27,298 nucleotides of DNA from NCBI GenBank assembly GCA_041694835.1, contig JBGFRZ010000062.1, positions 1 through 27,298 on the forward strand, written 5' to 3'. Shown here piece after piece: positions 3,846 to 27,201 of the stretch. The notes beneath the pieces are model-generated. The model saw only the letters and a list, made by a program, of their open reading frames with translations. It made no database searches and was not told where the DNA came from. Positions within the stretch are counted from its first letter, which is position 1, and every line of letters begins with the position of its first letter. The position numbers were made by a program, and so were the translations under genes. This DNA comes from Ignavibacteria bacterium (GTDB taxonomy: Bacteria; Elusimicrobiota; Endomicrobiia; PHAN01).

Positions 3846-5174
3846 ATGAAAATAATTCTTATTGTTTTGGATTCCGTCGGTGTGGGTGAGTTGCCGGATG
3901 CAGAAAAATATAATGATGCTGGGGCAAATACGCTTGGGCACATAACGGAATCAATAAAAAATTTTGACTTACCGAATTTAGCGAAACTTGGCCTTTATAA
4001 GCTGTTACCTAACTCTCAACTCTCAACTCTCAACTCTCAACTAATTGGTTGTTACGGCAAAATGGCAGAGGCGTCAAACGCAAAAGATACAATAATAGGT
4101 CACTGGGAAATTACAGGATTGATTACTGAAAAATCACTGCCCACTTATCCCGACGGTTTTCCGAAAGACCTTATTGAAAAATATGAAAAACTTATCGGCA
4201 CGAAAACACTCGGGAATTACGCATCTTCCGGGACCGAAATAATAAAACAACTTGGTGAAGAACATTACAAAACTGGCTACCCAATTGTCTATACATCTGC
4301 CGATAGCGTTTTTCAAGTTGCCGCACATGAGGATGAAAAAATTTTCGGACTTAAAAAATTATATGAAATCTGCGAAATTGCAAGAAAAATTCTTGTTGAG
4401 CCTCACAATGTAGGTAGAGTTATTGCAAGGCCGTTTATGGGAAATTCCGGAAATTTTAAACGAACGTCTAACAGACACGATTATGCGATTGACCCGTCTG
4501 CTGAAACTTTGCTTGATAAAATTATCAAATCCGGCGGCGAGGTAATTGGTATTGGAAAAATTAAAGATATATTCAATGGCAGGGGAATTACAAGAGCAAT
4601 TCATACAACAAGCAACAAGGACGGGATGGAAAAAATCTTAATAGAGGTCAGAGGTCAGAGGTCAGAAGACAGAGAGCAGAGAACAGAGAACAGAGAAGAG
4701 AGAAGAGAAAAGATAAAAGAGAAAAAACTCATCTCTCACCCTTCACCCTTTACGCTTTCCGCTTTACGACATTTTATTCTCTCACCTCTCACCTCTCACC
4801 TCTCACCTCTAAACTCTCAACTAATTTTTACTAATCTTGTTGATTTTGACATGCTCTGGGGTCATCGTCGGGATGTTCAGGCATACTACAATGGACTTAA
4901 AGAATTTGATAATTTTTTTCCGAAGTTGCAAAGTGCAATGTCTGACGAAGATATTTTATTCATTACCGCAGACCACGGTTGCGACCCTTCGCACGCATCT
5001 CACACCGACCACACCAGAGAGTATGTGCCTCTTCTCGTTTACGGAAAAAATTTGAAAAAAGGCGTGAATCTCGGAACAAGAAAAACATTTGCAGATTTAG
5101 GTCAGACAATAGCCGAGGTATTTCAAATAGAGAAATTGAAAAATGGTTTAAGTTTTGCCAAAGAATTATTTTGA
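3846..5174 (+). CDS. deoB: Phosphopentomutase carrying in-frame repeat-derived insertions
   Basis: Motifs IVLDSVGVG, KDT..GHWE, YTSADSVFQVAAHE, VGRVIARPF, TNLVDFDMLWGHRRD, ITADHGCDP and TDHTREYVP. 442 aa, longer than typical (about 390). Confidence 0.95.
   Translation: MKIILIVLDSVGVGELPDAEKYNDAGANTLGHITESIKNFDLPNLAKLGLYKLLPNSQLSTLNSQLIGCYGKMAEASNAKDTIIGHWEITGLITEKSLPTYPDGFPKDLIEKYEKLIGTKTLGNYASSGTEIIKQLGEEHYKTGYPIVYTSADSVFQVAAHEDEKIFGLKKLYEICEIARKILVEPHNVGRVIARPFMGNSGNFKRTSNRHDYAIDPSAETLLDKIIKSGGEVIGIGKIKDIFNGRGITRAIHTTSNKDGMEKILIEVRGQRSEDREQRTENREERREKIKEKKLISHPSPFTLSALRHFILSPLTSHLSPLNSQLIFTNLVDFDMLWGHRRDVQAYYNGLKEFDNFFPKLQSAMSDEDILFITADHGCDPSHASHTDHTREYVPLLVYGKNLKKGVNLGTRKTFADLGQTIAEVFQIEKLKNGLSFAKELF
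4011..4042 (+). repeat. Heptamer tandem repeat (AACTCTC)x4 + AACT inside deoB
   Basis: Read directly. Encodes NSQLSTLNSQL. Confidence 0.95.
4643..4822 (+). repeat. Heptamer-periodic purine-arm/pyrimidine-arm element, in frame inside deoB
   Basis: Left arm is AGAGGTC x3, AGAAGAC, AGAGAGC, AGAGAAC x2, AGAGAAG x2, AGAAAAG. Right arm is TCTCTCA CCCTTCA CCCTTTA CGCTTTC CGCTTTA ... TCTCTCA CCTCTCA x3 CCTCTAA ACTCTCA. A 43-nt core (4751-4793) matches 17817-17859 with 1 mismatch. Confidence 0.93.
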
Positions 5175-5224
5175 TTTTGCACTCTAAAAAACGGTGAAAG
5201 TTTCAAAAAGGAGGCGCTTAAAAT

Positions 5225-5479
5225 ATGATACGGGAATATGTTGAACAGGCGATGGAAAAAGCACATTATGAAATAATTGAAAATTCCGGACAGTATTACG
5301 GCGAGATTGCTGTATGTCGTGGTGTCTGGGCAACAGGGAAAACGCTTGAAGAATGTCGCAAAAATCTTGAAGATGTACTTGAAGGATGGATTTTATTGAG
5401 GGTTCGCAGAGGATTGAAAATTCCACCAATTAACAATCGGGTTGTAAAACCGTTAGAAAAGATTTTGGTAAATGCCTAA
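5225..5479 (+). CDS. hicB: HicB-family antitoxin (partial RNase H fold, no DNA-binding domain)
   Basis: YYGEI..CRGVWATGKTLEECRKNLEDVLEGWI is a typical HicB motif. RBS AGGAGG upstream. Confidence 0.85.
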   Translation: MIREYVEQAMEKAHYEIIENSGQYYGEIAVCRGVWATGKTLEECRKNLEDVLEGWILLRVRRGLKIPPINNRVVKPLEKILVNA

Positions 5480-5690
5480 ACTGACCCCGTTATCCTGGAT
5501 AAATTTTGTCAGGAAACTGCGTAGATATGGTTTTGACGGACCATATTCTGGCGGTAAACATTTGTATATGGTAAAAGGCGACATAGTTTTGACTATACCC
5601 AATCTTCATAGAAGCGGTATAAGTAAAGGTCTCATTGCTCGTATTATTCGTCAGGCGGGTATATCACGCAATGAATGGTATTTATTGTAA
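5472..5690 (+). CDS. hicA: HicA-family toxin (dsRBD-fold RNase)
   Basis: LRRYGF...GGKHLYM...LTIP..H...ISKGLIARIIRQAGI; 72 aa, overlapping hicB. Confidence 0.85.
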   Translation: MPKLTPLSWINFVRKLRRYGFDGPYSGGKHLYMVKGDIVLTIPNLHRSGISKGLIARIIRQAGISRNEWYLL

Positions 5691-5702
5691 TAATGAGGAA
5701 AT

Positions 5703-25379: not shown

Positions 25380-25601
25380 ATGAGAGGATACATAGACAGA
25401 ATCGAAGACAAGAAATTCGCCGTCATAAATATCATCGGCGGCGGCGAGATGATAATTCCCGTTAAGCAGTTTAAATTCAAAATTTACGAGGGAATGCATC
25501 TTGAAATAAATTTCAAACCGAATCCCGAAAGTGAAAAAAAGCTCCTTGAGAGAGTAAAAAAACTCCAGCGGGAACTTTTAAGAAGGTCGAAGGATAAATG
25601 A
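25380..25601 (+). CDS. Small DUF3006-like protein
   Basis: IDRIEDKKFAV...EG..L followed by a C-terminal helix (RVKKLQRELL). RBS AGGAG. Confidence 0.65.
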   Translation: MRGYIDRIEDKKFAVINIIGGGEMIIPVKQFKFKIYEGMHLEINFKPNPESEKKLLERVKKLQRELLRRSKDK

Positions 25602-25740
25602 TGAAGCAAATAGCAAATAGCGAATAGTAGCGGCACCGCTCCCCGACGGAGACAGGATTTGTGGTGCAAAGGAAAATTGCCAAAGGAAAAAGGAAAATTG
25701 TAGTAAGAAGCGACAAAGCAACAAGGTGACAGAGCGAAAG
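25602..25740 (+). repeat. ATAGC(A/G)A heptamer tract with a variant hairpin and an AGCGACAA-type octamer tract
   Basis: TGAAGCAAATAGCAAATAGCGAATAGTAGCG, then a GCACC...GGTGC stem, then AGCGACAA AGCAACAA GGTGACAG AGCGAAAG. Confidence 0.75.
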
Positions 25741-25747
25741 AAAACTT

Positions 25748-27133
25748 ATGAATAGAAAAATGAGCAAATATTTGATTTTACTATTTTCTATTTACCTTCT
25801 ACCTTCTGCCTTCTACCTTCTACCTGTTGTTCATGCTTCTTTGCCCAAGGGTTTTGAAGTTTATTTTAATAATCCGACGGGCACACAAGATGCCAATGCC
25901 CCCGGATTTGATTTTAGGTTTAAAAATTTTATAGATGCGGCAAGTAGCACGACAATTTATGCGGCATTTTATAGTATCAATAATAGCACAGTTATAGCGG
26001 CATTGAATGCGGCATTGAGACGGGGGAACACCGTGTATTTTATTTGCGACGCGGACCATACAACATTAGATAACTTTAATCTTTTGGTTTCCACCAGAAA
26101 AATAAGGACGACAGCGGGCTTTGAAGTACACAATAAATTTGCCGTCATCAAAGATTCTTCCGTTTGGACCGGTTCGTGGAATCCCACAATAACCGATACT
26201 TATCAAAACCACAATAATGTGATTGTTGTCCGCTCGTCGGCTATGGCTAAAATATTTGAGAACGAATTTTTAGAGATGTACAGTGGGCGGTTTGGTCCCG
26301 CTAAGACGCTGACCGCTAATAACGGCCACACGGTGCGAGTCAATGATGTAAATGTAAAAATATATTTTTCACCATATAGGTCACCGCACGAAACGAATTG
26401 GGTTATATCAGATAAAATTTTAAATGCTAAAGAAAAAGTAGCATTTTGTCTGTTTAGTTTTACCACAGCAGATAATAGAATGTACACTTCGTTAATCGAA
26501 AGTATAGGTAGGAGGATAGAAGTTTACGGAGTTTTTGATATTACTCAAGCTGCTTACAATAGTAGCACCTATGCCAGATTGAGAGATGCCGGCGCATATG
26601 TTGTTTTTTACGCAAACCCTGTAAATATAAATTTTAATCTTCATCACAAATTTGCGGTTATAGATCCTTTCACGGCAGATGCAAGGGTTATCACTGGGTC
26701 GCATAATTGGTCGGAGGGGGCGAATAATCAAAATGATGAAAATACTTTGGTAATCCATTCACCTGAAATCGCCAGAGTTTATTATGAGGAGTTCCAACGT
26801 CTCTATAGAAAAGCAGGTCTGATAATCTCCCCGACAAAAAAATCCATAGACAAAATTGTTATATACCCGTCGCCCGCGGTTTTAAAGACAAAAATAGGAT
26901 ATGAAATTTCTTCAAGTGTTAAAGAAACAAGAATCAAAATATACAATCTCTCCGGTGAACTTGTTCGGACACTTAATCCAACGAACGTTCCGGGATTTTA
27001 CAATGAGACCGAGTGGGATTTAAGAAATTCGCAAGGACAGAGAGTCGCGCCGGGACTGTATTTTGTAAAAGTTGAAGCGACGATACCCGACGGAACATTT
27101 TTTGAGACGAAAAAAATGACAGTTGTAAAATAG
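25748..27133 (+). CDS. Secreted phospholipase D-superfamily protein (two HKD domains) with a C-terminal FlgD-Ig / T9SS-type-A-like domain
   Basis: N-terminal signal peptide ending VHA-S. HNKFAVIKD..WTGSWN and HHKFAVID...TGSHN. C-terminal IYPSP...IKIYNLSGELVRTL...WDLRN..G..V..GLYF. Confidence 0.85.
   Translation: MNRKMSKYLILLFSIYLLPSAFYLLPVVHASLPKGFEVYFNNPTGTQDANAPGFDFRFKNFIDAASSTTIYAAFYSINNSTVIAALNAALRRGNTVYFICDADHTTLDNFNLLVSTRKIRTTAGFEVHNKFAVIKDSSVWTGSWNPTITDTYQNHNNVIVVRSSAMAKIFENEFLEMYSGRFGPAKTLTANNGHTVRVNDVNVKIYFSPYRSPHETNWVISDKILNAKEKVAFCLFSFTTADNRMYTSLIESIGRRIEVYGVFDITQAAYNSSTYARLRDAGAYVVFYANPVNINFNLHHKFAVIDPFTADARVITGSHNWSEGANNQNDENTLVIHSPEIARVYYEEFQRLYRKAGLIISPTKKSIDKIVIYPSPAVLKTKIGYEISSSVKETRIKIYNLSGELVRTLNPTNVPGFYNETEWDLRNSQGQRVAPGLYFVKVEATIPDGTFFETKKMTVVK
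25794..25825 (+). repeat. Heptamer repeat (A/G)CCTTCT x4 + ACCT inside the signal-peptide coding region
   Basis: Read directly. Encodes YLLPSAFYLLP. Confidence 0.9.
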
Positions 27134-27201
27134 CAAATAGCGAATAGTAGCGGCGGGATTGCTATCCCGCAAATAACAGCAAATAGCGAATAGCAAATAG
27201 T
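27129..27201 (+). repeat. ATAGC(A/G)A heptamer tract with an embedded GCGGGAT-TGCT-ATCCCGC hairpin
   Basis: Fills the whole gap between the PLD stop and ATG 27202. Hairpin at 27153-27170. Confidence 0.9.

Follow-up and report, generated by a model that had tools for sequence, protein, structure and literature searches.

Palindromic heptanucleotide repeat arrays in the operon spacers and enzyme loops of an Elusimicrobiota locus

What kind of element keeps a period of 7 nucleotides (nt) while its sequence drifts, and lies both between genes and inside them? The question is raised by a stretch of 27,298 nt (contig JBGFRZ010000062.1 of assembly GCA_041694835.1, deposited as Ignavibacteria bacterium and placed by GTDB in the Elusimicrobiota; the whole stretch is called the window below), in which a preliminary description, made from the sequence alone, had pointed out a family of 7-nt-periodic repeat elements. 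In our judgment, the elements are probably palindromic heptanucleotide long simple sequence repeats (SSRs), a class described in Xanthomonas and Nostoc, among other bacteria, and encountered here in a clade of the Elusimicrobiota.

Tandem Repeats Finder (TRF) detected period-7 arrays at all nine loci that had been named (4643, 6526, 13384, 14500, 17666, 20949, 22781, 25602, and 27129). It recovered the same units (AGAGGTC, ACAGAGA/AGAGAAC, CGGGAAG, AGCAAAT, GTGGCTG, and TGCAAGA), together with a period-8 unit, GCACAAGN, and three additional loci (4011-4042, 16465-16516, and 25793-25825). A sliding autocorrelation test of the window, a check suggested in the preliminary description, gave 11 segments at lag 7 and 2 at lag 8 but no segment at lag 6 or lag 9; a separate scan gave none at lags 5, 6, and 9 to 12, and none of 200 first-order Markov simulations produced a single lag-7 segment. 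The described period of 7, sometimes 8, with a drifting unit is thereby confirmed. Over its 27.3 kb, the window has 11 arrays of at least three tandem 7-nt copies; by our own arithmetic, roughly half of its noncoding DNA belongs to the elements. The units are skewed toward purines or pyrimidines beyond the random level, with at least six of the seven bases belonging to one class in 18 of 63 units (7.9 expected; P = 0.0004). The motif AGCRAATAG occurs 17 times (0.47 expected), 15 times on the + strand at stop-proximal ends and twice on the − strand at the ribosome-binding-site (RBS) ends of the 14500 and 17663 elements, which is a palindromic placement.

The elements are listed here, with no strand assigned unless one is given; z-scores are those of folding, + strand before − strand.
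4011..4042: AACTCTC ×4.6 (TRF), a single pyrimidine-rich arm, in frame in loop 1 of the phosphopentomutase gene, encoding LPNSQLSTLNSQL.
4643..4822: two-armed element of 180 nt (60 codons), in frame in phosphopentomutase loop 2; left arm AGAGGTC/AGAGAAC, right arm CTTTACG/CTCTCAC; z = −3.2, −5.8.
6526..6672: intergenic element separating the genes for purine nucleoside phosphorylase and pyrimidine nucleoside phosphorylase; left arm AGCAAAT/AGTGGCT, right arm GAGCCAC and related units; z = −1.7, −2.0.
13382..13500: intergenic element following the gene for the PfkB kinase; the first unit, AATAGAG, contains that gene's TAG stop codon (13384-13386), followed by TGCAAGA and CCTGTAT; z = −2.1, −1.8.
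14500..14693: intergenic element from 1 nt past the stop codon up to the RBS; modules in the order AGAGGTT, CGGGAAG, CGGAAAG / CTTTACG, CTTTCCG, CTCTCAC, with a final CTATTTGCT; sequence families D1 and D7; z = −5.4, −6.1.
16465..16516: arrays of CACAGAGAG (9-mer) and CACGAAAG (8-mer), the left arm of a hairpin within a 650-nt noncoding region; z = −3.8, −3.4 for 16455-16620.
17663..17888: intergenic homologue of the 14500 element (83 to 92% identity); its left arm has a GCACAAG module in common with the 20949 element; z = −6.7, −6.9.
20141..20149, + strand: one AGCGAATAG unit within the spacer of 22 nt that follows the gene for the PHO4 phosphate transporter.
20949..21105: intergenic element with unequal arms, a long purine-rich GCACAAGN ×10.9 and a short pyrimidine-rich ACTTACGC ×2.8; family D3; z = −4.4, −5.9.
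22781..22928: intergenic element; left arm AGCGAAT/AGCAAAT with two small GC hairpins (GCGGGATTGCTAYCCCGC), right arm of GTCGCTGC units; family D5; z = −3.1, −2.6.
25602..25830: two-armed element; left arm (25602-25745; AGCAAAT, AAAGGAA) intergenic, right arm (TACCTTC ×4.7, 25793-25825) inside the next gene.
27128..27200: purine-rich arm only, AAATAGC/AGCAAAT with a small GC hairpin, any partner arm lying beyond the window; the first unit contains the upstream gene's TAG stop codon (27131-27133), and the element is 94% identical to 22779-22843.

The two-armed elements are long imperfect palindromes, built in each arm from short heptamer modules in series, with the left arm mirrored by the right. 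As had been described, a purine-rich arm comes first and a partly complementary pyrimidine-rich arm second, in 8 of 8 two-armed elements of the window (purine fractions of 0.66 to 0.85 on the left and 0.20 to 0.42 on the right). The strand polarity that had been read from this order is void: purine-then-pyrimidine order is unchanged by reverse complementation, so that scoring it relative to the coding strand is impossible and it provides no evidence of polarity. It is still a real regularity, because the pyrimidine-first mirror image, likewise self-symmetric, is rare: among 14 adjacent complementary pairs in the window and its relatives (gap of up to 120 nt), 11 were purine first, 2 reversed, and 1 neutral, and among 24 pairs up to 1,500 nt apart the numbers were 15, 6, and 3.

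The elements are also placed with respect to genes. By our gene map, arrays are present in every one of the nine spacers that exceed 60 nt, and shorter spacers have at most a single unit. According to the earlier statement, intergenic copies usually start right after a stop codon and end just before the next RBS. On reading the sequence, six of eight begin inside the upstream stop codon (two TAG stops falling in the first repeat unit) or no more than 7 nt past it, whereas the 17663 and 20949 elements begin about 160 to 190 nt past the stop, behind another insert. At the other end, the 13382, 14500, 17663, 20949, and 22781 elements finish within about 20 nt of the next RBS or start codon, whereas the 6526 element stops about 40 nt before the next start and the right arm of the 25602 element runs into the next gene. 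In the Elusimicrobiota loci, mapped with crude open reading frame (ORF) calls in which some starts are misplaced, of the arrays between co-directional genes, 17 nearer a stop codon were purine rich and 2 pyrimidine rich, versus 7 and 13 nearer a start codon (Fisher P = 0.0008). Three of these 7 are window arrays, of which 17688 and 20981 lie behind another insert and 25605 is misplaced because an upstream gene of 73 amino acids was not called. Forty-four arrays lay between co-directional genes and 1 between convergent genes.

The two inserts that separate a stop codon from a heptamer element (17475-17665 and 20787-20948, about 160 to 190 nt) both start with GTTGAAAAA and finish with GTTTTTCAA..CTCATAATACA (83% over 29 nt), their interiors being unrelated; they may be the termini of another small element or a common promoter region.

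Compared with dinucleotide shuffles, six elements folded better on the + strand (z = −3.1 to −6.7) and two others reached −1.7 and −2.1; the single-arm arrays did not fold. Transcribed elements must form long hairpins, and these probably affect mRNA processing or stability as repetitive extragenic palindromic (REP) elements do, which we regard as a consequence of the elements and not as the reason for their existence. Long double-stranded RNA stems are substrates of RNase III, and REP hairpins stabilize upstream mRNA. The main rival to the long-SSR reading is that the elements are punctuation of the operon selected at the RNA level, acting as RNase III processing sites, 3′-end stabilizers, or translation attenuators; the next RBS would be masked by the pyrimidine arm or receive ribosomes from it. 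It draws on the placement from stop codon to RBS between co-directional genes, the folding of the six elements, the purine/pyrimidine position rule, and the complementary arms found in every family although the units are unrelated; in addition, the available part of Rehm et al. (2015; PMC4692102) states that most Xanthomonas repeats are transcribed.

The tests that would be expected to set the sense strand apart did not do so. The antisense strand folded equally well or better: the minimum free energies of the seven two-armed elements sum to about −399 kcal/mol on the + strand and −425 kcal/mol on the − strand, with the + strand better in three, the − strand better in three, and one tie. G·U-type transition mismatches had no sense bias (32 on + versus 38 on −), and among three homologous copies, too small a set for such a test, 2 of 44 pairs were compensatory and the covariation term was a penalty. 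A search of Rfam 15 at a permissive E value returned three chance-level matches (E = 0.13 to 0.92, far below the gathering score). None of 15 terminator-like sites lay inside an element, their total being below the shuffle mean of 21, and nothing in a promoter and terminator scan of the window coincided with the elements, with counts at or below shuffle levels. Some elements have one arm or unequal arms, one full hairpin lies within coding sequence, and two close relatives carry the same operon without such hairpins (see below). No regulatory role was found by Rehm et al. for the Xanthomonas arrays, as far as the available part of that paper goes (PMC4692102). Of the RNA-level role that had been proposed for the window, folding beyond shuffled controls stands; the G·U and covariation checks gave no sense-strand signal, and the distribution in relatives is patchy. 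We regard selected operon punctuation as rather unlikely on this evidence.

For comparison we used 80 related loci, designated L001 onward, of which 7 are the closest, 43 come from other Elusimicrobiota, and 30 are an outgroup; the window and all of these are metagenome assemblies. The closest loci belong to Elusimicrobiota metagenome-assembled genomes (several titled groundwater) with 62 to 70% protein identity and a gene order identical to that of the window, and the named sequences among the best phosphopentomutase matches are uncultured Elusimicrobiota/Endomicrobiia. Per 100 kb, the window had 40.3 period-7 arrays of at least three copies, the 7 closest loci had 14.6, the 43 other Elusimicrobiota loci 4.9, and the outgroup 1.4. 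The relatives have an equivalent array architecture with unrelated units, each genome having its own units and its own dispersed family, such as CAGNATA hairpins in at least four spacers of L010. The 23-nt core of the right arm had no match in 185,579 species genomes, and the AGCRAATAG module was found in none of the 80 loci. In the close loci, 16 of 44 spacers of 70 to 260 nt folded at z ≤ −3 (a rough score from 12 mononucleotide shuffles per spacer and the crude ORF calls), and all 5 strongly 7-periodic spacers were among these 16. Structured spacers at operon junctions were patchy (L005, 0 of 9; L004, 0 of 2; L010, 7 of 12), and because presence at the same junctions is patchy, the elements are not essential. 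L003 has a far-apart complementary array pair at 19639 and 20518; a similar arrangement first considered in L010, with complementary arrays on either side of a gene, was rejected when reading of the spacers revealed two separate complete hairpins. Our literature search, which left out most subscription journals, found no paper on such arrays in Elusimicrobiota.

Arrays also occur inside genes. The phosphopentomutase ORF (3846-5174; 442 amino acids) is 18 to 50 residues longer than the listed full-length homologues at identities of at least 61%, and both AACTCTC ×4.6 (loop 1) and the 180-nt two-armed element (loop 2) are in frame within it. Relative to the solved enzyme, 60 residues take the place of a 9-residue loop. 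In the AlphaFold model, residues 272 to 281 and 294 to 322 have a predicted local distance difference test (pLDDT) score below 50 and the remainder is confident; the columns invariant across 17 homologues are retained. The insert is thus a palindromic in-frame repeat outside the conserved core, with copies elsewhere. The AACTCTC array is 100% perfect in a gene whose protein is 71% identical to its nearest relatives as a whole (up to 79% over aligned columns). In the relatives, loop 1 carries TCTACCC (L002) or ACTTACC (L003), and loop 2 carries AGTCCGA with CTACACC (L001), TCTACGC (L002), CCGTCAT (L003), or the 8-mers AGTTCTCA and AACACAAG (L006); of the 73 remaining loci, L056 alone has a phosphopentomutase array, a short one at loop 1 (ATAAAAG, 2.9 copies). 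The frame is kept in all five genomes with in-gene arrays, which at the protein level are 7-residue repeats such as PSTVYRLPST and ELRTLRNSELRTL; as the unit is 7 nt, only three-unit changes preserve the frame. In a second window gene, the signal peptide of a PLD-like protein is encoded by TACCTTC ×4.7 (25793-25825; YLLPSAFYLLP).

Sequence is shared between elements at different places. The 14500 and 17666 elements are 83 to 92% identical over both arms, the copies at 22779 and 27130 are 94% identical, and the 17666 and 20949 elements have in common a 39-nt module (92%) plus upstream nonrepeat flank. Loops 1 and 2 of the phosphopentomutase gene end in the same 34 nt (91% identity; family D6), again including nonperiodic flank, and altogether five dispersed sequence families (D1, D3, D5, D6, and D7) were found in the window. 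Seventy-three nucleotides of the phosphopentomutase insert match the right arm of the 14500/17666 elements at 74% identity, and because this match takes in a nonperiodic stretch, sequence moves between arrays. By these alignments, the elements are not independent inventions, and the templated spreading considered in the preliminary description finds one form in such transfer.

Dispersed homologous copies at unrelated sites might also be those of nonautonomous mobile elements, akin to MITEs (miniature inverted-repeat transposable elements) or to REP doublets forming hairpins (REPINs), with a transposase encoded elsewhere and the heptamer period as a property of the founder. The hairpin form, the insertion in frame into a gene, and families private to each genome fit this account, as does a small GC-rich hairpin, GCGGGATTGCTAYCCCGC, embedded in AGCAAAT arrays at 22797-22822, 22842-22868, and 27148-27172. 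GTAG precedes two of its copies (those at 22797 and 27148, the one at 22842 being a variant), the two within 22781-22870 are direct and not inverted, and a small GC palindrome with a GTAG head (GTAGCGGCGGGATTGCTAYCCCGC), which occurs in three elements, presumably resembles a REP unit. REP sequences, bacterial interspersed mosaic elements (BIMEs), and REPINs are likewise dispersed, intergenic, hairpin forming, transcribed within operons, and organized in genome-specific families, but REPs are fixed palindromes of about 20 to 40 nt mobilized by a REP-associated tyrosine transposase (RAYT) and have no tandem 7-nt periodicity, according to the available part of PMC3116915. No RAYT (IS200/IS605-type) gene and no other transposase domain was present among the 24 window proteins scanned with Pfam or in 4 further scans. 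The alignments contain mosaics of modules rather than whole elements, lack consistent terminal inverted repeats, common termini, and target-site duplications, and extend into nonelement flank, and the diversity of units within one element is hard to derive from a single founder. Mobility of this kind is improbable.

For the long-SSR reading, we infer slippage, template switching, gene conversion, and a selective filter. Slipped-strand mispairing during replication would expand, contract, and homogenize each array, so that the period is inherited and the unit drifts (concerted evolution). Since a conserved period with drifting sequence is the outcome of concerted evolution in slippage arrays, it is no argument against simple slippage, as it had first been taken to be; what stands of that objection is that the elements are composite palindromes whose modules recur across spacers. 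Slippage would explain the perfect AACTCTC array inside a diverged gene. The two arms would arise by inverted duplication, their partial complementarity being kept by template switching within the quasi-palindrome, and gene conversion or duplication between arrays would give rise to modules common to the spacers and the phosphopentomutase loop. Arrays vary independently of their hairpin partners, with 10.9 versus 2.8 units at 20949 and single arms at 4011, 25793, and 27128. Selection would act as a filter on sites, admitting arrays to spacers between stop codon and RBS and to disordered surface loops, where stop-free, mostly pyrimidine-rich units would be read as 7-residue repeats. The arm order, which is alike for a gene on either strand, finds its simplest explanation in the same filter: behind a stop codon, an arm rich in purines and often in stops would be tolerated, and ahead of an RBS, one rich in pyrimidines.

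Several observations weigh against this account. Arm complementarity is kept in every family (AGTAAGT/TTACTAC in L003, CAGAATA/CTGTATC in L010, and GTAGGAA/TTCTCCT in L026), and across unrelated units selection for hairpins explains this as well as template switching does. The gene-referenced position rule is not predicted by a purely neutral process; the arm order (8 of 8 window elements and 11 of 14 adjacent pairs), the purine/pyrimidine skew of the units (18 of 63), and elements that span spacers exactly from stop codon to RBS point the same way. In five of eight close genomes, the same two loops of the phosphopentomutase have kept arrays, always with different units. Nor does the account give a reason for a unit length of 7 nt.

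The closest known counterparts are the long SSRs of Xanthomonas (GGGAATC) and Nostoc (GGGGAYT), with which the window elements have in common 7-nt tandem units, an intergenic bias, a position between co-directional genes, convergent inverted pairs forming stem-loops, a purine-rich strand just downstream of the upstream ORF, and variation between genomes at the level of single junctions. In the available part of Rehm et al. (PMC4692102), the Xanthomonas arrays are about 90% intergenic, mainly between co-directional genes, have a mean distance of 28 nt to the upstream ORF, and form 70 to 75 convergent inverted pairs per genome; at one and the same junction their length and sequence differ among species, and they could be assigned no function. 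In contrast to these, the window has no dominant unit but at least 10 units nested as modules, some common to several spacers, its arrays also lie in frame in protein loops across species, and the phylum is a different one. Because its units contain no G-runs except for CGGGAAG, the only one with GGG, G-quadruplexes are not expected; the architecture matches, and the G-quadruplex subtype does not. The finding that bacteria have heptanucleotide repeats in general excess and the view that 7 nt matches the stretch of DNA in the grip of the polymerase, which would favor slippage, are both credited to Mrazek et al. (2007) in the available parts of PMC4692102 and PMC4679880.

The cyanobacterial short tandemly repeated repetitive (STRR) sequences and the TAACTGA repeats of Beggiatoaceae are likewise short intergenic tandem heptamers near start codons, sporadic across lineages, but they have one or a few fixed units per genome, whereas the window has many, mostly in paired inverted arms (available part of MacGregor 2015; PMC4679880); the TAACTGA repeats are almost all direct there (169 direct sets and one indirect). 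No TRF consensus unit or complement is known to match an STRR unit. Cold-shock proteins (Csp) have a heptanucleotide footprint, and an array of such units might be a binding lattice for a single-strand nucleic-acid-binding protein covering about 7 nt, such as a Csp or ribosomal protein S1, so that period 7 itself would be selected. This would suit a period that is conserved while the sequence is free, the strong purine/pyrimidine skew, and pyrimidine-rich units just upstream of RBSs, and S1, Csp, or CsrA has been proposed for the TAACTGA heptamers (available part of PMC4679880). The arrays lack a shared motif for a protein to recognize, lie in either arm and within genes, come also as 8- or 9-mers, and are linked to no candidate gene in the window, which makes the lattice very improbable.

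For the in-gene arrays there are two further comparisons. Palindromic elements of Rickettsia are reportedly inserted in frame in a housekeeping enzyme gene, translated as a surface excursion, and present in copies elsewhere; the likeness to the phosphopentomutase insert is one of behavior only, as there is no sequence relation and the insert consists of heptamer arrays that differ among related species at the same loops. The in-gene repeat units of Borgs are said to be multiples of 3 nt, in contrast to the 7-nt unit here. Fast-evolving tandem repeats that add disordered protein segments are a feature common to both (Borg proteins in the available part of PMC9879509).

That the elements are a product of chance or of assembly is hardly credible: all assemblies compared are metagenomic and repeats are prone to assembly errors, but none of the 200 simulations gave a lag-7 segment, independent assemblies from different studies have a like architecture, and the in-gene frame is kept in five genomes.

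By Pfam assignment, the window is a cluster of Elusimicrobiota genes for nucleoside salvage and phosphate uptake, with all sizeable genes on the + strand (the map is our own, built from ORFs, Pfam scans, and reading of the sequence). The salvage genes encode adenine deaminase, phosphopentomutase, two purine nucleoside phosphorylase-family enzymes, pyrimidine-nucleoside phosphorylase, a RecJ-like protein with an RNase_T exonuclease domain, a DHH protein, a PfkB kinase, adenosine deaminase, and cytidine deaminase, and the uptake genes encode PHO4, a PhoU-like protein, and a Na/Pi cotransporter. The window further encodes two restriction-modification modules and a HicB/HicA pair. The HicB-like (UPF0150; 5225-5479) and HicA-toxin-family (5472-5690) genes overlap by 8 nt and form a toxin-antitoxin pair (5225-5690) between the phosphopentomutase and purine nucleoside phosphorylase genes; a tblastn search with the HicB-like protein, HicA not being used as a query, found no match at the equivalent position in nine mapped relatives. 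A fragment of a Tsp45I-like restriction enzyme stands at the start of the window (1-357), and a DNA methylase and a HinP1I-like endonuclease (2093-3836; GC content of 0.31 to 0.33, lower than the surroundings) lie between the adenine deaminase and phosphopentomutase genes, a pair present in L001 and L004 and absent from L002, L003, and L005. The RecJ-like protein (8061-10304), encoded inside the nucleoside-salvage operon, has DHH, DHHA1, and RecJ_OB domains with RNase_T (residues 222 to 376) between DHH (79 to 211) and DHHA1, and it is conserved at full length in the relatives (residues 1 to 739 aligned).

Other observations concern sequence next to the elements. A 395-amino-acid protein encoded between the cytidine deaminase and PHO4 transporter genes (17902-19089) matches nothing but the AAA_33 P-loop domain, and that with a score under the cutoff (E = 7e-5); the listed start of its ORF, 17776, overlaps a repeat element and is probably not the true one. 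Directly after the purine-arm-only element, an ORF starts that leaves the window (27202-27297) and has a weak match to 23S-rRNA-intervening-sequence proteins (E = 0.0097 over 32 amino acids only). The 650-nt noncoding region (16430-17078) holds other palindromes, namely, three CCCCTCT...AGAGGGG-type hairpins, CCCCGTGCCACGACACGGGG, and a CCGTTAGAAAT...ATTTCTAACGG stem, and gave no Rfam match and no convincing ORF. Direct repeats containing CGCAGAT at a spacing of about 10 nt occur in operon spacers of several genomes (window, 20827-20845; L002, 12857-12872; L006, 13889-13925; L003, 16163-16183), and from its spacing the repeat looks like a putative response-regulator binding site. No tRNA was found in a tRNA scan of the window.

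The same facts could be put more boldly, as a rule across phyla: that in Xanthomonas, Nostoc, and Elusimicrobiota the arrays run purine arm first from stop codon to RBS because an active, gene-referenced process, and not passive slippage, writes or maintains the 7-nt period. This reading, which rests on periodicity that outlasts 20 to 30% divergence of the flanking proteins and on persistence at the same protein loops, is doubtful. Were it true, the process might, for example, be tied to transcription or translation or be the work of a dedicated enzyme, and the in-gene arrays would be frameshift switches, a one-unit change breaking the phosphopentomutase frame and a three-unit change restoring it.

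The cause of heptamer overrepresentation in bacteria has been open since the 2007 report, as cited in the available parts of PMC4692102 and PMC4679880. To this problem the locus adds a distant phylum with the gene-referenced architecture seen in Xanthomonas and a free unit sequence, and since the same architecture is built from free units, G-quadruplexes are removed as a general explanation and two constants are isolated, the period and the purine-then-pyrimidine order. The locus differs from the known cases in its phylum, its many nested unit sequences, the sharing of modules, and in-frame arrays conserved by position across species. For annotation, there is a warning that gene ends, gene starts, and signal peptides may here consist of repeat arrays. 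Heptamer arrays lying in frame in an essential-type enzyme across species make this clade a natural system for slippage, for the maintenance of frame, and for the birth of disordered protein segments.

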